In this document: positions 657-64,000 of the stretch, in pieces | How positions within the stretch are numbered: the stretch's first letter is position 1 | Layout of the letters: each line of letters begins with the position of its first letter | From: a virus | DNA: 64,000 nucleotides | Reading direction: 5' to 3' (one strand) | Virus record (IMG/VR): IMGVR_UViG_3300026484_000110 | Notes under the pieces: model-generated | What the model was told of the DNA's origin: nothing | The model's input: the letters and a program-made list of their open reading frames with translations, nothing else | Databases searched by the model: none | Made by a program: the position numbers and the translations under genes

Positions 657-676
657 GGTATGTCCCTATAGTAAAT
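646..676. terminator. Intergenic hairpin overlapping the stop codon
   Basis: atttactataggg-tatgt-ccctatagtaaat, 13-bp stem. Confidence 0.7.
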
Positions 677-680
677 ATTT

Positions 681-697
681 TTCATTTATATATTATT
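681..697 (+). promoter_or_regulatory. Early (virion RNAP-type) promoter motif
   Basis: ttcatttatatattatt resembles the phiKZ early consensus TATATTAC and recurs at 48341 and 55179. Confidence 0.7.
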
Positions 698-727
698 CAA
701 ATGCAAATACCAATTTAAAGGATTAAT

Positions 728-2269: not shown

Positions 2270-2320
2270 ATATCATCCTTTATTTATATATATGTCTCAT
2301 TATTATATATTTATATAATT

Positions 2321-2520
2321 CGGTACTACATGCTGTCGCATTACCCACCCTCCGCCCAGCGAGGGACTCCCGCTCCTCTGCTCCTCCCAGATTCCATACC
2401 AGCTAATATGGTCCAGACCACTCCATACCTGTAGCCCTTACCTCATGGAGGCAGGTACTACAGGTATAAAGCATGTACTGACTGGTCGTATAGCCCCTCG
2501 CTACAGCTATACTAGTAGAG
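2321..2520. ncRNA. Candidate structured non-coding RNA/DNA element (family and strand unknown)
   Basis: 108/200 G+C by hand count in an AT-rich genome. Nested stems 2327-2334/2470-2477, 2348-2365, 2425-2467 and 2488-2512. No tracked ORF. Confidence 0.55.
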
Positions 2521-2672
2521 TGATCGCAACTATCTCAATCTTGAGTAGTATTTTGATATCGTACCTACAGTACAATTTAAGGTCCTAATAGCTTTTGCTA
2601 TCATACATATTGCATTTGTCTAAAATTTTTTCATTAAGAACATTATTTTAGAAAAGGACATAAAGGAAAAAA

Positions 2673-4841
2673 ATGTTTGAAGTATTTAAATTAGAGAAAG
2701 ATAAATATACCACCGATATAGATCCTATTAACCACTATATAGAGCAAGCTAGTAAATACATAGCAACACAAAATCATTTACCTATAGAAGAAGCAAAAAA
2801 GAAAGTTAAAAATGTTTTAAATAAATTAAAACAAGAACATCAGATTAGAAATCCTAGAGTGAGATATAGGGAAAGAACATTAGATGGTAAAATAATTAAT
2901 AATCAGTATACAACTATATTAGGATATATAAATTATGTAAAACAGAATGATGATATTTTAGTACCATCTTTTACAGTATATTTTAATCGTAAAAAGAAGA
3001 AATCACTGCATGCTGAATTTATTAGTGAAAATATTGCCTTAAGATCTAAACATAAAAAATTGGCTTTTAAGTATAAAATGGATGGTGATAAAGAAAAATC
3101 CAATTATCATAATACATTGCAAAAATCTATGAAAATTAAAAACAATAGTTTATCAGGAGCATATGCTAGTGCAGGTACAGTACTATATAATCCATCGGCA
3201 CACTATACACTAACATCTATTACAAGATGTGTATCAGGAATAGGTAATGCTATATCTGAATCAATGATTACAGGTAATAGACATTATAGAGATCCTAATG
3301 TGACATTAAACCATTTAACAGCTATTGTAACAAATATAGACATGGATAACTTTAAACAGATAATGGATAAGTACGAATTATATTATCCTACAGCTGAAGA
3401 AGTATTAAATAAAGTAATATTAAAGTCTAGTAAATATTACTGGAGAAATACTTATAGAGAACATAGAATATTAGAATTTTTGAAAAGATTATCTCCCGTA
3501 GAAAGAGCAGCTATTACATATGTGAATGATTTATACCAACTAAGAGAATTTAATCCTGAATTTGTAAGGAAGTTATTAGATAGTATACTATTTAAAGAAG
3601 CAAAAATAAATACTGTCGAACAAGCTATAGAAGTCTTAAAATCTTTAGAAGATTGGATAATAAACTTATTACTACATCTGAAAGCTGATATAGTACGTGG
3701 TAGAAAATATGTTTTAGAGGGGGAAGATAAATTACCAGATGAGGTAATAATAGATTTAGCTAAAGCAGGTTTAAATGCTCAAAGAGTATTTCATAATTAC
3801 AAAGACTTAATACAGACATTATTTGTTACAAAGGTATTTCCTATCTCTATAGCATATATAAGAGATATGTTAAGAGAAGTAATTGTGTTATCAGATACAG
3901 ATAGTACATGTGCTACATATCAAAATTGGATAGAATGGTATTTTGGTAAACCTGTGATAAATTCTACAGCAATAGGTCTGACTGCTATAGTGATGACATT
4001 TAATACACAAGCAATAGACCATTATATTAAAGTACTAGGTGCAAATATGAATATTGGTTACGAGGGAGCTAAGAATTTACAAATGAAAAATGAATTTTTC
4101 TGGGATGTATTTGTAAATACAGATGTATCCAAACACTATTTCGCTAATGTTAGAATACAAGAGGGTAATGTATTTAAAGAACCAGACCTAGAGAAGAAAG
4201 GTGTGCATCTTATAGCATCATATGCTTACCAACCGGTAAGAGACTTAGCTGAAAAAATGATGAGAGATATTATGGATACTATCTCTAGAAACGAAAAATT
4301 GTCATTAACAAAATATTTGAAACAAGTAGTAGAAGCAGAACAAATGATTATTAAAGCAATTAAATCAGGTAGCCCTAATGTATTAAAATTAGAAAAAATA
4401 AAAGAACCTACAGCATATAAAGCAGAAATGGATAAATCTCCTTATTTACAATATTTATTATGGCAAGATGTCTTTGCAGATAAATATGGTAATGCACCTG
4501 ATCCTACTTATATGGCTGTTAAAATTCCTACCATAATTAATAGTAAAAAAGATATGGAAAATTGGTTATCTAGTTTAGAAGATCAAGAATTTACTAATAA
4601 GTTTAGAGAGTTTATGAAAAAATATAACAAAACAGAAATTAAGACATTCAAATTTCCATTAGTAAATTTACACAATAAAGGTTTCCCTAAAGAGATAATG
4701 GATATTATAGATATTAAGAAAGTAGTAAAAGATAATTGTAATATGTTATATATTATTTTAAACAGCATGGGATATTATGTTAAACCAAACTTAATATTAT
4801 CCGAAGAATTACCATTTTTAAAGGATGCTGAAAAAAAGTAA
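2673..4841 (+). CDS. polB: Family B DNA polymerase, polymerase-domain subunit (phiKZ gp50-like split PolB)
   Basis: Motif B QKSMKIKNNSLSGAY and motif C VIVLSDTDST. No 3'-5' exonuclease domain evident, as in split phiKZ-type PolB. Confidence 0.9.
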   Translation: MFEVFKLEKDKYTTDIDPINHYIEQASKYIATQNHLPIEEAKKKVKNVLNKLKQEHQIRNPRVRYRERTLDGKIINNQYTTILGYINYVKQNDDILVPSFTVYFNRKKKKSLHAEFISENIALRSKHKKLAFKYKMDGDKEKSNYHNTLQKSMKIKNNSLSGAYASAGTVLYNPSAHYTLTSITRCVSGIGNAISESMITGNRHYRDPNVTLNHLTAIVTNIDMDNFKQIMDKYELYYPTAEEVLNKVILKSSKYYWRNTYREHRILEFLKRLSPVERAAITYVNDLYQLREFNPEFVRKLLDSILFKEAKINTVEQAIEVLKSLEDWIINLLLHLKADIVRGRKYVLEGEDKLPDEVIIDLAKAGLNAQRVFHNYKDLIQTLFVTKVFPISIAYIRDMLREVIVLSDTDSTCATYQNWIEWYFGKPVINSTAIGLTAIVMTFNTQAIDHYIKVLGANMNIGYEGAKNLQMKNEFFWDVFVNTDVSKHYFANVRIQEGNVFKEPDLEKKGVHLIASYAYQPVRDLAEKMMRDIMDTISRNEKLSLTKYLKQVVEAEQMIIKAIKSGSPNVLKLEKIKEPTAYKAEMDKSPYLQYLLWQDVFADKYGNAPDPTYMAVKIPTIINSKKDMENWLSSLEDQEFTNKFREFMKKYNKTEIKTFKFPLVNLHNKGFPKEIMDIIDIKKVVKDNCNMLYIILNSMGYYVKPNLILSEELPFLKDAEKK

Positions 4842-5239
4842 TTTACAAATGGGCTAGGAGAGTAAATAGAGGTGAACCCTATTACGAAGTATCCAGTAAA
4901 GGTGATAAAAGATATTCAGCTCTCTATGCTCGTTTAAGTAGTTATAATAATAAATCCATAGAAGAAATTTACCAACTAGATATTAAGGGTTACAGAGATA
5001 AAGTAAAACATTGGAAAGAAGCTAAAGGTAAACCGCCATTAAATAATAAGACAGAAAATGAATTATTTAAAGAGTATGTAATACTATGGGAACAATATTT
5101 TAAAGAAAATCCTACATTGCTAAAAGAAATAAAAAATAAAGCAAAAGGTAAGACAATTACAGATATGTTCGGAGTCACATCTATCAATCAAGCCAGAGCA
5201 ATTTGTTATATTTTAAACGACTACAAAGAATATGATTAA
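4838..5239 (+). CDS. Untracked conserved-looking phage protein lacking a canonical start codon (tentatively NADAR-like)
   Basis: Open frame VIYKWARRVNRGEPYYEVSSKGDKRYSALYARL...SIEEIYQLDIKGY...KGKPP...TDMFGVTSINQARAICYILN fills the gap exactly. Fold assignment is a guess. Confidence 0.7.
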   Translation, partial: VIYKWARRVNRGEPYYEVSSKGDKRYSALYARLSSYNNKSIEEIYQLDIKGYRDKVKHWKEAKGKPPLNNKTENELFKEYVILWEQYFKENPTLLKEIKNKAKGKTITDMFGVTSINQARAICYILNDYKEYD

Positions 5240-5253
5240 GAAAAGGAGAGATC

Positions 5254-27333: not shown

Positions 27334-28599
27334 ATGAATTTTTTAACAAAACATTTAGAAGATGAAGTTAAATCAGTATTAGGGTATGAAGAAAGTGACA
27401 AACCAGTCAATCCGTGCGACTTAATAGATTCTATAGAAGTTATGAAACAAAATGAATCGGACACTAGATTGTTAACAGTAGCTTATGAAGATATAGATAA
27501 GATAACTGAATCTAATTTGATTATGTTGGGGATATCACCAGATAGAATTACAACAGGATATGAAGTAGATGCTAAGAAAATGTTATCAGGTATTTTAAAT
27601 ACAATAACTAGACTGATAAATTCCATAGTAGATTTTTTTAATAAGGTATTTGCGTTCTTTTTAACCAGATTAAAGAATAAGAATACTACGCTATATAAAA
27701 TTAAAAAAATACTAGATGAAGCAGATAAAAAAGGGAATATTGTTCCAGAAGGTAATTTTTCAGAACCAGTCAGGATTTTAATTGCTAAAGAAGCAGTCGC
27801 ATTAGACTGGTTCGAAGTAGAACCGAGTGCTAAGGGTATGATAAAATTTTATGATAAAATTGAAAGACAATTAGAAAATAGTTATACAGAATTAGAAGAT
27901 AAATATAAACAGTTAGTATCCGGAACATTAAATAAGAGTTTAATAATGTTTATATTAAGATGGACTTTAGAAGGTAGTAAAAATGCAATATACGATAGAA
28001 CTTATAGTAAATTTTTAAAGAATTTTAAAACTAATGATAAAATAATTAATGTAAGATTAAAAAAGATAGATAGAGTATCTATTAAGTTACAAATAGTTAC
28101 AATCCCTAAAGATAAACTTGATGAAGCAATAAATGCAGCTAAAAACGGAGATATTAAAAAGACAAAACAATTGTTACAAAGTATTAAAAAGCATGACTAT
28201 AGTGTGGAGATTACGAAAGAACTTTATGAAGGTCTTTTGAAAAAAATAACAGAACCTTTAGATTTTGTAGAGGTCGGTGAAGTAGTAAATACAGGTATTA
28301 AAAAATATTCAGATGTAGAAAAAATTGTCAATAAGTCTAATAAATTAATTAAAGATGTTAAAGTAAAGGTAGAGAAATTTGTTAAATCAGCTGAAAAAGA
28401 TGCTGATGAAGACATGGTCGCAGTAGCTAGTATTCTGTCAAACTACATAATAGGTGATGTAAGAGATGATTTAAATAATGTAGTTAAGTTATCTGAATAT
28501 ATTATAAAACCACCATTTACAAATTGGCTAATAGAATCCATTAAAACATGGGGTAATTATTATAAGAAAAAGTTAAATGAAAGATTTAAAAAATATTAG
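27334..28599 (+). CDS. Internal head/ejection protein paralogue 7
   Basis: LGYE, AYE and TGYE sites, NLIMLG, amphipathic helix ILNTITRLINSIVDFFNKVF. Confidence 0.7.
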   Translation: MNFLTKHLEDEVKSVLGYEESDKPVNPCDLIDSIEVMKQNESDTRLLTVAYEDIDKITESNLIMLGISPDRITTGYEVDAKKMLSGILNTITRLINSIVDFFNKVFAFFLTRLKNKNTTLYKIKKILDEADKKGNIVPEGNFSEPVRILIAKEAVALDWFEVEPSAKGMIKFYDKIERQLENSYTELEDKYKQLVSGTLNKSLIMFILRWTLEGSKNAIYDRTYSKFLKNFKTNDKIINVRLKKIDRVSIKLQIVTIPKDKLDEAINAAKNGDIKKTKQLLQSIKKHDYSVEITKELYEGLLKKITEPLDFVEVGEVVNTGIKKYSDVEKIVNKSNKLIKDVKVKVEKFVKSAEKDADEDMVAVASILSNYIIGDVRDDLNNVVKLSEYIIKPPFTNWLIESIKTWGNYYKKKLNERFKKY

Positions 28600-28663
28600 T
28601 TAAATTTTCTAGTCAGATATTTTTCTGACTAGAACATAATTGTTTCTTTTAAAGGATTATAAA

Positions 28664-29971
28664 ATGTCATATACAGTAAAATTATTAGAAAACGAAGTAT
28701 CAGAAGTTTTAAGCAACAGTAAAAAGTTTGAATTTCCAGATATAAAATTGTATTTGCATGGTGAAGACTTTGATATGCCTATTACATATCCTATTTTTTT
28801 AGATATAAATAAAAACTATAATTCTAACTTATTTTCAGAAATTACAGTAGAATTTGGTATAGGTATGGGTGATTATGTAAATTATATTTTTAAAAATAGA
28901 GATAATTTGGAAATGACTATCCAGATAGATTATCCAGAATTTTCAGATATAAAGAGGTATTCATTCATACCGTTGAATGTAGATAAAAAATCAGATACTA
29001 CTAGATACAGCCACATGGACGGTGAAGATTTAAATAAAATGGATATGGTAACTGTTAAAGGTCAATGCGTAGATCCTATTGTTTTAATTTATAAACAATT
29101 GTTTGTTTCGGGTATTTATAAAAATGTAAATGTAGAAAAAGTTATAAAAGGTTTGTTTAGTAAAAACTTTAAGGATATTAAAATAGCAGGTAGGTCTATT
29201 GATTTTGCTATAGATATGAGAAAACCAGATAATGACAGAACTTATGACCACATTATAATAAAGAGTAATACTAAATTAGCAAAATTATTACATTATTTAC
29301 AAGATTACGACTATGGCGTATATAATGGTGGTATAAACCATTTCATAGAACAAATTAAAGAAAATACATATAGGATATATATTTACCCATTGTTTAATTA
29401 TGAATTATTCGATACATTATTAGAAGATAAAATTATTTTCTATAACAGTAGAATTGTATCTGCCGATTTAAACGATGTCTCGTTTTGGAAAGAGCCTAAC
29501 ACTAGATTATATAAATTAGTAACGTCTTCGATAGAAATAGAAAACAGAGGCAGTATGAATTTGATAGAACACGGAAATGCTTTAAAAGTCACATATCCAA
29601 TAGCCGCAATTAGTAAAGATATGACATTAGTAAACGATAAACAAATAATGTTTGACGTTTATGGTTGTAATGAAATTAAACTTTTAGGAGTTAAATCTAA
29701 CAATATTATAAATCCTATATATACAAACTTTGATGATAATTTATTCAAGTACAGATCTAACATAATTAGGAACAATTTATTAAATGCTAAATTAAAATTA
29801 AACATGGTGGATACTAGGTTTATTAGACCAGGTATGTTAGTAAAATATATACATCAAAGAGGTGATGAAGTAGTAGAAAGGAGAGGTGTGTTGCAATCGT
29901 TATATGAAAGTTATAATTTTATTAAAAAAGAGAATGCTATTTTATTAAACTTTATGATAGAAAGGAAGTAA
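28664..29971 (+). CDS. Probable baseplate hub-like protein (phiKZ gp101-like)
   Basis: DHIIIKSNTKLAKLLHYLQDYDYGVYNGG and RFIRPGMLVK resemble hub-type tail proteins. Start moved from TTG 28640 to ATG 28664. Confidence 0.5.
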   Translation: MSYTVKLLENEVSEVLSNSKKFEFPDIKLYLHGEDFDMPITYPIFLDINKNYNSNLFSEITVEFGIGMGDYVNYIFKNRDNLEMTIQIDYPEFSDIKRYSFIPLNVDKKSDTTRYSHMDGEDLNKMDMVTVKGQCVDPIVLIYKQLFVSGIYKNVNVEKVIKGLFSKNFKDIKIAGRSIDFAIDMRKPDNDRTYDHIIIKSNTKLAKLLHYLQDYDYGVYNGGINHFIEQIKENTYRIYIYPLFNYELFDTLLEDKIIFYNSRIVSADLNDVSFWKEPNTRLYKLVTSSIEIENRGSMNLIEHGNALKVTYPIAAISKDMTLVNDKQIMFDVYGCNEIKLLGVKSNNIINPIYTNFDDNLFKYRSNIIRNNLLNAKLKLNMVDTRFIRPGMLVKYIHQRGDEVVERRGVLQSLYESYNFIKKENAILLNFMIERK

Positions 29972-48549: not shown

Positions 48550-49182
48550 ATGTCAGCATTAATAAAAACAAATAATAGAAATGAAAAAGGTACATTATAT
48601 ATTGCGTTAGTTGAAGTTACCAGCAGAGGTGGTGGGTTATATGACGTAGTGCAATTTTTTAAAAGGACAGGGTCCGATAATGCTGCACTAAACTGGTTTG
48701 AAAAACTTGAGAGAGATGCTCGTAGAGGAAAGTGGAATATCCATAATACCGGTAAAATACCGGGAATATGGGATTTTATTACTAGAAATTACATCCTGAT
48801 CTCAGCAGCGACTGCTGGGCAGGATACACTTGAGATTGGGTTTCACAAGAGAAATCCGACTGTTAAAGACTGGGTGGAATTTGACGAAAAAGGAGGTTGT
48901 ACATACAAGAAGCAGGTATCGTGTACCAGCGAGATAGTGCCAGACATTCTAATAACTGGTGGATGGGATCCTGCATTAACCTGTAATCCAAAGGGGGGTG
49001 TCTGTAATCTCAGTTGGAATTGCGGTACAAGGAATAACCCGGAGGATTGCGAAACAAAAATCAGTTATAGAGATGTTCCGGTCATATTTCATATTCACCC
49101 GGAACCCGGAACGGTTTCTAGACAGTCATTTTACATCTGGAATTTACCACAAGGATGGGGATGGCTGGTAAAACCTGAATAA
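48550..49182 (+). CDS. Cys/Trp-rich hypothetical protein with anomalous GC
   Basis: About 40-47% GC in sampled 60-nt lines versus AT-rich flanks, six Cys in the C-terminal half. Confidence 0.7.
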   Translation: MSALIKTNNRNEKGTLYIALVEVTSRGGGLYDVVQFFKRTGSDNAALNWFEKLERDARRGKWNIHNTGKIPGIWDFITRNYILISAATAGQDTLEIGFHKRNPTVKDWVEFDEKGGCTYKKQVSCTSEIVPDILITGGWDPALTCNPKGGVCNLSWNCGTRNNPEDCETKISYRDVPVIFHIHPEPGTVSRQSFYIWNLPQGWGWLVKPE

Positions 49183-62618: not shown

Positions 62619-64000
62619 ATGAATTTAAATAAACGCGTATTCAAACACACTGAGAGTAAATCAAAATTTAATCCCCAAGTCGTAAGCGGTATGGGTAAAC
62701 TTTATTTAGATAAAGTACCTGAATATTTAGATAGTATTATTAGGACTGGTGTAGCTAACCTAATACCAGAAATACCATTCAGTTACAATGGATGGAGATA
62801 CCTATCTCCAGAAGAGGACTTTCATGACCAATTCAAATCTAGTAGTAGTAAAAATAGTATTGACGTAGCTAAAAACACACTGTATAAAATTGAATTCAGT
62901 TTTGAATTCAATGGACAAGAATTAAAAAGAGTATTACTACTACCATATGTAGAAAAAGGTAGCATAATGTATCTATCTGATGCTATATATTCAGTAGTCC
63001 CTGTGCTAACAGAATATGTCGTATATCCTACAAATAAAGAAGTCTTTGTAAGGCTATTGAAAGATAAATTAATATTTAAAAGAATGGAAAGAAATATTTT
63101 AATAGACGGAGTAAAAACACCTGTGCCAGTAATTCATAGTAGAGCTTATAAATTCACACAAGGAGTAAACGATAAGGTACCTATGGCGTTATATCTATTT
63201 GTTAGAAACGGTTTTTATGGTGTGTTTGAAAAGTATTTTAATACTAAACCAATTATAAAAGGACCAGACGACATGGTCACTGATAAAGAAAGAGAAAAAT
63301 ATACAGTGTTTGAGTCTACTGGTGTAAAACCTAGAATTCTACACGATCCAAATTATAGACCACATGGTATCAAAATTTTAGTAGAAAAAGATAAAGTAAA
63401 TCCATTTATGGAATCAGTAATAGGTGGATTAATTTATAGCTTTGATTTAATAAATGTATTTTCTAGACATTTACCAGATATATTAACAGGTAAGTCTAGA
63501 ATGGATGAAAATACATTTTGGAGAGTATTACTGGGTAAAGTAATATTTAGAAACAAGTATACCCAAGATAAAATATTAAATGCTATGCAGGAATATATAA
63601 GTGTAATTAATACTTATATAGATCCTATTATTGATGCTAAACTAAAAGAATCCGGAATTGTAATAGAAGACTTTTATGACTTGGTAGCTTATATTATTAA
63701 GAATTATAACGAACTAGTAATTAATTCAGAAAGGAGGAGCTCTAATTTAGAATTTAGATATATAGATGTGATATATTATCTAATGTTTGAAATCATTGCA
63801 GGTATAAATAAAATCTTTTATGGAATAAATAAGGAATATACCAAAAAGGGTGATAAATTAAGTTTAAGAGATATTGAGAACTTGTTTAACAAACATTTGA
63901 CTAGTAGGAAAATATTTAGTTTAATCAAAGGAGCTACTAACTTGGCATTAATGCCTATTGATTATTCTGGAGATAACTATTATCCTAAAATTACTGCTAT
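62619..64000 (+). CDS. rpoB: Non-virion RNAP beta subunit, N-terminal half (phiKZ gp123-like), truncated by the window end
   Basis: My translation: MNLNKRVFKH...GWRYLSPEEDF...LLLPYVEKG...SVVPVLTEY..FVRLLKDK. Early-like motif at 62584-62598. Not in the ORF track because it has no stop in the window. Confidence 0.8.
   Translation, partial: MNLNKRVFKHTESKSKFNPQVVSGMGKLYLDKVPEYLDSIIRTGVANLIPEIPFSYNGWRYLSPEEDFHDQFKSSSSKNSIDVAKNTLYKIEFSFEFNGQELKRVLLLPYVEKGSIMYLSDAIYSVVPVLTEYVVYPTNKEVFVRLLKDKLIFKRMERNILIDGVKTPVPVIHSRAYKFTQGVNDKVPMALYLFVRNGFYGVFEKYFNTKPIIKGPDDMVTDKEREKYTVFESTGVKPRILHDPNYRPHGIKILVEKDKVNPFMESVIGGLIYSFDLINVFSRHLPDILTGKSRMDENTFWRVLLGKVIFRNKYTQDKILNAMQEYISVINTYIDPIIDAKLKESGIVIEDFYDLVAYIIKNYNELVINSERRSSNLEFRYIDVIYYLMFEIIAGINKIFYGINKEYTKKGDKLSLRDIENLFNKHLTSRKIFSLIKGATNLALMPIDYSGDNYYPKITA

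Follow-up and report, generated by a model that had tools for sequence, protein, structure and literature searches.

The non-coding island at positions 2318 to 2606 is best read as a stand-alone gene for a structured non-coding RNA, the putative first member of a new family. The gene very probably lies on the minus strand of the window, the term used here for the whole 64,000-nt stretch of phage DNA that was analyzed. The predicted RNA begins with a short hairpin and a single-stranded linker, continues with three folded domains, A to C, and ends in a G-rich tail (Table 1).

Genomic setting

The window is the reverse strand of positions 63026 to 127025 of a phage record of 186,213 bp with 28% G+C. 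As an earlier sequence-only reading had stated, the island lies between divergent genes, an open reading frame (ORF) on the minus strand (1796-2269) and a DNA polymerase gene on the plus strand (2673-4841), which are 403 bp apart. The latter encodes a "divergent family B DNA polymerase" (PolB; PF20286, E 7e-192) that is complete from residue 8 of its profile. The minus-strand ORF, downstream of the RNA tail, encodes a 157-aa orphan protein, and no homologues of it were found. PolB is followed by 412 bp (4842-5253) without a called ATG-started ORF. The ribosome-binding consensus of the phage genes, AAGGAG, is strong. An RNase H domain (PF00075, 81 bits summed) is encoded at positions 28459-29007 of the plus strand of the record (G000:C1), within an open frame of 474 codons (L245/L246).

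Chimallin and PhiKZ_VTX genes accompany the relatives of PolB on their contigs, some of which come from hydrothermal-vent metagenomes. Because of these accompanying genes, the phage is taken to be a chimallivirus-like, probably nucleus-forming jumbo phage of an uncultivated A+T-rich host. At exactly 125 bp, the terminal direct repeat of the record has the look of an overlap left by the assembler on a circularly permuted genome; the record ends are therefore uninformative on the physical termini or the packaging site.

A recount of the segment 2321-2520, the extent originally given for the island, returns the reported 108 G+C in 200 nt, in a window and a genome that have only 28%. With a G+C fraction of 0.60 over 100 nt, the island is the top GC peak of the entire 186-kb genome, and 2318-2606 is its most GC-rich non-coding stretch. 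The view that it contains no coding ORF holds: only two ORFs, of 34 and 47 codons, cross it, and neither is kept in the relative. The substitutions lack a 3-nt periodicity (37/44/39). An assembly chimera, which would have refuted the earlier reading, is ruled out because the same module occupies the same place in independent assemblies.

Table 1. Predicted parts of the RNA gene and its flanking spacers (window coordinates)
Feature	Position	Strand	Remarks
Whole conserved RNA module, about 285 nt	2318..2606	-	Ends are where conservation stops
Short 5' hairpin, 4 pairs, tetraloop	2589..2600	-	4/4 pairs changed on both sides; 81% of cells paired
Single-stranded linker with invariant UUAAAU (2575-2580)	2566..2588	-	Identical in window, L002, and L003
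Domain A: stem, internal loop, inner 8-bp hairpin	2513..2565	-	Helices 2-4 94-100% paired
Domain B: 8-bp hairpin, variable loop of 9-11 nt, then conserved CGACC	2488..2512	-	
Domain C: closing helix around long bulged hairpin	2394..2485	-	Helices 6-9 85-100% paired
Unstructured purine-/G-cluster-rich 3' tail, about 75 nt, conserved GGAGCAGAGG core	2318..2393	-	
Nearly pure A+T spacer, tail to ORF 1796-2269	2270..2317		From sequence
Spacer of 66 nt, RNA 5' end to PolB start codon	2607..2672		

Copies and distribution

The module is known in four copies from three uncultivated phages: the window phage (G000), a 185-kb genome (G011) that carries two, and a phage represented by the contig L003. 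One G011 copy is located upstream of a PolB gene whose product is 67% identical to that of the window phage (loci L002, L004, L053, and L105). The L003 copy, cut by the contig end, also lies upstream of PolB, which is 63% identical in this case. The covariance model R1 matches the window at 2318-2601 with 282.6 bits and the relatives with 280.8, 189.1 (the copy cut by the contig end), and 81.3 bits. The lowest score belongs to the second, much diverged G011 copy (G011:5745-6047, E 3e-21), which is found away from PolB, with a 154-aa ORF on its divergent side, a 189-aa orphan on its convergent side, and a gene for an SF2 helicase two genes off. At all four copies, spacers of 90-120 nt lead to the divergent gene. 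The flanks of the module fail to align between the phages, and the upstream neighbor differs, being the minus-strand 157-aa orphan in the window phage and a plus-strand 95-aa orphan in G011.

The sequence-only reading had proposed collecting the regions upstream of PolB from related phages and testing them for covariation. This has now been done, and the four copies show both conservation and compensatory changes, which backs the proposal that the island is a functional structured nucleic-acid element. In relatives with PolB of ≤58% identity, the module is absent beside PolB, where merely 80-120 nt lie upstream of the gene. The second copy is missing from the syntenic site of the window phage, which has a gene for a 210-aa protein instead. 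This Cys-rich ORF, with a GC-rich middle (window 48550-49182; G000:77844-78476), occupies the site of both the second copy and the 189-aa orphan of G011, and the swap hot spot adjoins the conserved 154-aa ORF. Judged from these sequence comparisons, the RNA family is gained, lost, and duplicated among related phages, as an accessory element would be.

Database searches did not extend the family. A blastn search of the NCBI phage collection with the island gave no match, and nhmmer with the seed alignment found only the known copies in all fetched loci. A three-block pattern matched the same phage and chance sequences only, both in IMG/VR and, among the matches listed, in metagenomes. Nothing new came from a tighter pattern in IMG/VR and GTDB genomes or from tail and domain A patterns in IMG/VR. 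Model R1, run over 10 related records and, with filters off, over six more loci, returned only noise, as did model R2 over 48 related records, although R2 is a poor model, built on a MAFFT alignment that misplaces the 5' half of the second G011 copy. A pattern for the apex hairpin of domain C is matched in 56 IMG/VR contigs (loci L184-L238), all of them at intrinsic terminators sharing the stem; these matches were judged a coincidence because terminators are so numerous in the collection. The 8-bp apex stem with its tandem wobble thus recurs in U-tailed intrinsic terminators of unrelated phages, especially in a T7-like marine group.

Conserved fold

RNAalifold predicts 62 pairs from three sequences. 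In the four-sequence, model-based alignment, 61 pairs are 92.1% paired and 35 of them have changes on both sides, these counts being drawn from four sequences of three phages in an alignment fitted to the model. None of 500 shuffles reaches any of the five measures used, and sliding the partners by 1-3 columns leaves 36-41% paired. The second G011 copy, which was left out of the structure derivation, fits the fold with 54 of 59 cells paired (47 Watson-Crick and 7 G.U, in addition to 1 A.C and 4 other). In keeping with the original description of the island as heavily base-paired, its fold is stronger than chance: the minus-strand MFE z-scores of the four copies are -4.05, -3.45, -4.41, and -3.15.

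The invariant UUAAAU block of the linker is weaker in the second G011 copy, and the rest of the genome has no further copy of the motif. The internal loop of domain A consists of invariant AUAUCAAAAU and UGCGAUC strands, and 7 of the 8 pairs of its inner hairpin are compensatory. In helix 5 of domain B, 6 of 8 pairs are compensatory and 83% of the cells are paired. The G.U-rich closing helix of domain C joins 2479-2485 with 2394-2401; the long hairpin that it encloses (about 2418-2473) has about 25 bp and an invariant apex stem (2436-2455), with a G.U pair at alignment columns 188/202 in all four copies. Two of the hairpins first proposed from the window alone, this one and the hairpin at 2488-2512, are therefore real and covarying. 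A short stem proposed at 2348-2365 can be drawn in the window but in no other copy, and the element as such is larger than the earlier 2321-2520.

Hairpin loops vary freely, and the internal loops, junctions, and apex stem are constant in sequence, a combination that suggests partner recognition or tertiary packing. A search for a conserved pseudoknot found nothing convincing; its one candidate is an alternative pairing of 5 bp, in competition with the apex stem.

Coding strand, 3' tail, and promoters

In all likelihood, the RNA is read from the minus (G-rich) strand, back-to-back with PolB. The alignment folding energy is -47.1 in the G-rich sense versus -31.1 in the other, and the G-rich sense is better by ~15 kcal/mol on each of three independent alignments, whichever strand these were built on. 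The plus-strand z-scores (-2.31, -0.84, -2.87, and -2.16) are weaker than those of the minus strand in all four copies. Wobble cells comprise 34 G.U versus 3 A.C, and both the closing helix of domain C and the invariant apex G.U form on the minus strand only. The position of the module is ambiguous in this respect: on the G-rich reading each copy is divergent from the neighboring gene, and on the C-rich reading it is the leader of that gene.

G makes up 44% of the tail and purines 67%. The tail can be aligned between the window copy and the two from G011, the G-clusters being in register around the conserved 10-nt core; conserved pairing was not found in it. Nowhere else in the genome are GGG runs as dense on this strand, and the only G3(N1-12)x4 motif of the strand is located in the tail. 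The G4Hunter score of the tail is 1.24 in the window and 2.04 in the G011 locus L002, consistent with a potential for quadruplex formation, and the GC skew over the tail is about +0.5 on the RNA-sense strand. No intrinsic terminator follows the tail, the sole minus-strand site in the scan being at 1801-1771, past the ORF. Both G011 copies run on into a shared segment of ~75 nt (L275:6048-6125 and L277:5645-5725), which is 70-78% purine and includes a 13-nt identical core, so that the RNA may be longer in G011. This segment has no counterpart after the window copy, where the 157-aa orphan ORF starts instead.

The spacer between the RNA and PolB must hold the promoter or promoters, if the two are transcribed divergently as predicted. 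No early-type promoter was found there on either strand, the best PWM score being 2.4 versus >15 for real sites, and a stretch at 2618-2650 that by eye resembled a PolB promoter did not score. Just upstream of the 5' hairpin, the window has TATG motifs whose last letters are G2606 and G2602. The same motif is found just 5' of the hairpin in L003 and is lacking in the two G011 copies, that is, it is present in two of the four. TATG is the late-promoter motif of phiKZ (PMC4666361). Elsewhere in the genome, about 30 sites, almost always on the window plus strand, share an early-promoter-like consensus of a T-run followed by CATTTATATATTAYTAAGA. It resembles the A+T-rich early promoter class of phiKZ; one such site (window 660-705) precedes a MazG-like gene (728-1345), and none adjoins the RNA gene.

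Alternative explanations

The C-rich strand could instead be a 5' leader, the mRNA start of the downstream gene, with a role in regulation in cis; its targets would be PolB at three loci and the 154-aa ORF at the fourth, and it might act, for example, through an anti-Shine-Dalgarno CUCCU or as a polymerase-binding operator like that of T4 gene 43. At all four loci this strand is co-oriented with a start codon 90-120 nt downstream, Watson-Crick helices are possible on either strand, and the two CTCCT motifs previously seen on the plus strand are indeed there. A weak early-promoter-like match on the plus strand (2282-2327) would place the start at the left edge of the conserved block; however, it scores 2.4 versus >15 for true sites, chance alone would give about one match of this quality over the stretch examined, and it is not conserved in L002. 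With two unrelated downstream genes, a G000 homologue of the 154-aa ORF that has no such leader, the preference of alignment energy, z-scores (in four copies), and wobble cells (34 to 3) for the G-rich sense, and a domain C closing helix and invariant apex G.U that are impossible on the plus strand, a leader is improbable. Since DNA hairpins tolerate G.T wobble, covariation alone does not prove an RNA, and the element might act at the DNA level, with no functional RNA: while single-stranded or supercoiled, its DNA might form hairpins, a G-quadruplex, or an i-motif. Its role would then be to signal packaging, to bind a protein, or to promote recombination as a hot spot; its mobility or duplication speaks for such an element, and the record ends, with a terminal repeat of just 125 bp, are uninformative. 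Nonetheless, the 61 pairs are spread over several domains and include many wobble pairs on a single strand, as is typical of RNA, the conserved blocks are unique in the genome, and no iterons or repeated boxes turned up in the other regions that were scanned; a purely DNA-level role is quite unlikely. Two of the identities originally offered, a retron-like decoy or a CsrA/RsmA sponge, have hardly any probability. The inverted repeat 2327-2334/2470-2477, which in the window pairs at 8 of 8 positions and closes about 150 nt holding the long hairpin, retains 3 of 8 pairs in the orthologue and forms no conserved closure, as its 5' arm belongs to the conserved long hairpin. The 186-kb genome encodes no RVT_1 reverse transcriptase (PF00078, 0 matches; controls detected), and Rfam gives no match to retron RNA models, even at E≤10, or to Csr/Rsm models. 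The 8 GGA motifs counted on the minus strand in 2351-2424 are there, but the G3 runs in this interval number three rather than four, with more runs just 3' of it. GGA counts in the tails (6 and 4) are near those expected from composition (3.3 and 3.7), and the motifs sit in the unpaired tail, whereas the conserved hairpin loops carry none.

The tail also fits an origin of replication, another of the roles first suggested, in the form of a transcript-primed R-loop in which, by analogy, the minus-strand RNA would fold, stall in its G-cluster tail, and stay annealed to the C-rich template, in a hybrid possibly stabilized by an RNA-DNA quadruplex. The adjoining A+T-rich DNA would then open, phage RNase H would trim the RNA, and the divergent PolB would extend it; the folded 5' body would control hybrid formation, as in RNA II. 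In phage T4, oriF and oriG combine a promoter with an A+T-rich unwinding element and form a persistent R-loop that is processed by RNase H, and several non-homologous origins lie near points of transcriptional divergence (PMC3016281); in the mitochondrial CSB II, a hybrid quadruplex makes the primer (PMC3488243). Consistent with such a role are the GGG-run density, sole G3x4 motif, G4Hunter scores, and GC skew of the tail, the succession of a G-rich segment and an A+T-rich tract (2270-2317) without an intrinsic terminator, and the continuation of both G011 copies into purine-rich DNA. Moreover, three of the four copies abut PolB, and an SF2 helicase gene is found two genes away from the fourth; an RNase H domain is encoded in the genome, and no DnaG_N, Toprim_2, or Prim-Pol primase domain was found in it, in a search limited to these three families. 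On the other hand, cumulative GC and AT skew tracks gene orientation, with no switch at the island, and the tail keeps a specific 10-nt core, beyond mere G-richness. Relatives with this polymerase lack the element, and one copy was gained or lost between G000 and G011, a patchiness that points to accessory behavior, unlike that of a core origin. A 1.6-kb non-coding region of the same genome (G000:169506-171149) is at least as origin-like. On balance, we consider it unlikely that the RNA is an origin primer. If it were, this would be, to our knowledge, the first origin defined for phages of the nucleus-forming type, a bacterial-virus counterpart of the mitochondrial CSB II and ColE1 RNA II mechanisms, and a handle on how nucleus-forming jumbo phages start DNA replication. 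The term "replication origin" is absent from a 2026 review of jumbo phages (PMC13282480).

The 1.6-kb region (L240) contains two back-to-back early promoters inside a palindrome and could be an origin-like or an early-control region. It also includes an 88-nt near-perfect hairpin (L240:596-683), a 50-nt polypyrimidine tract, and a GC-richer stretch (170664-170855). The inner hairpin of domain A has a 22-nt near-copy at L240:247-268 (G000:169647-169668). For the G011 version of this hairpin, no matching second copy was found at ≤3 mismatches; as the near-copy is specific to the window phage, the idea of co-variation between the two loci was dropped.

Proposed function

Our tentative choice, held with rather less than even confidence, is a trans-acting RNA that binds a protein or serves as a decoy, a reading suggested by the pattern of conservation together with gain, loss, and duplication. 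Such an accessory RNA would be transcribed by the phage's own RNA polymerase. Its folded body would confer stability and would be where a sequence-specific protein docks; the tail, purine-rich and exposed, would be the working end and bind or titrate either a protein with affinity for G-rich RNA or a nucleic acid rich in pyrimidines. With its two or three GGAG-type motifs, similar to the ribosome-binding sites of the phage, the tail has a candidate target in the anti-Shine-Dalgarno end of 16S rRNA.

Several observations run counter to a trans-acting RNA. No promoter or terminator was identified for it on either strand, the ORFs that neighbor the RNA copies are orphans, and all four copies are placed 90-120 nt upstream of an opposite-strand gene, a placement that would also suit a 5' leader on the C-rich strand. 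An R-loop origin would account at least as well as a decoy for a G-cluster tail that leads into DNA rich in A+T or purines. A function outside all of those considered here has a modest probability.

We know of almost no non-coding RNAs of nucleus-forming jumbo phages that have a known role. These phages shield their DNA, which makes RNA biology a meeting point of host defenses and phage countermeasures. With about 285 nt, a clear fold, a G-cluster tail, and a history of gain, loss, and duplication, the predicted RNA is a tractable candidate for a new RNA-protein partnership. The seed alignment is supplied for this family, which is missing from Rfam.

Relationship to known RNAs

Rfam 15 has no match at the gathering threshold in the whole window and no meaningful one at E≤10 over 2200-2700; the best subthreshold matches are chance hits to microRNA or snoRNA models. 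A tRNA/tmRNA scan found none. A group I intron was rejected because there is no RF00028 match at E≤10 on the island, which lies between genes and not inside one. The other GC-rich non-coding gaps of the genome are group I introns (RF00028, 100.2 and 74.7 bits). They occupy 847-1115 and 178713-179088 of the minus strand of G000:C1, and a second unit in tandem reaches to about 179490 (L239, L241). Intron-internal repeats spaced 370-420 nt apart suggest two tandem introns that split a gene into ORFs of 445 and 71 aa. These introns share no sequence with the island, which is on the opposite strand.

The resemblance to the retron msr-msd layout, with short stems and a long hairpin between the arms of an inverted repeat, is confined to the window; the genome is devoid of a reverse transcriptase, the repeat is not kept in the orthologue, and the fold shared by the copies is closed in another way. 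Like the CsrB, RsmY, and RsmZ sponges, the window RNA is purine rich and has several GGA motifs, and the idea of partner titration is retained in the trans-acting reading favored here. In contrast to these sponges, its GGA motifs are outside the hairpin loops and are not enriched beyond composition, and it has no match among the Rfam models. The primer and R-loop RNAs, namely, ColE1 RNA II, T4 oriF/oriG, and the mitochondrial LSP/CSB II, share with it a folded 5' part, a G-rich non-template segment, adjacent A+T-rich DNA, the lack of a terminator, adjoining replication genes, and an RNase H in the genome. The window element differs from them in having no skew signal, no sequence similarity, and no conservation among relatives with the same polymerase.

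Small RNAs (sRNAs) have been mapped in phiKZ and 201phi2-1, and the sRNA conserved in giant phages is a fragment of a 5' UTR that precedes a tail gene (PMC11512511), a locus other than that of the window RNA. ROOL and GOLLD differ from the window RNA, which is far smaller (~285 nt), has a long unpaired G-cluster tail, and does not match these or other Rfam families. With ROOL, GOLLD, and the sRNAs of phiKZ and 201phi2-1, however, it shares the properties of being phage encoded, intergenic, and GC-rich relative to the genome, as well as a multi-domain covarying fold, a patchy spread, and an orphan function. By its sequence and predicted fold, the window RNA thus represents a new family within a kind already known, the structured orphan RNAs of phages.
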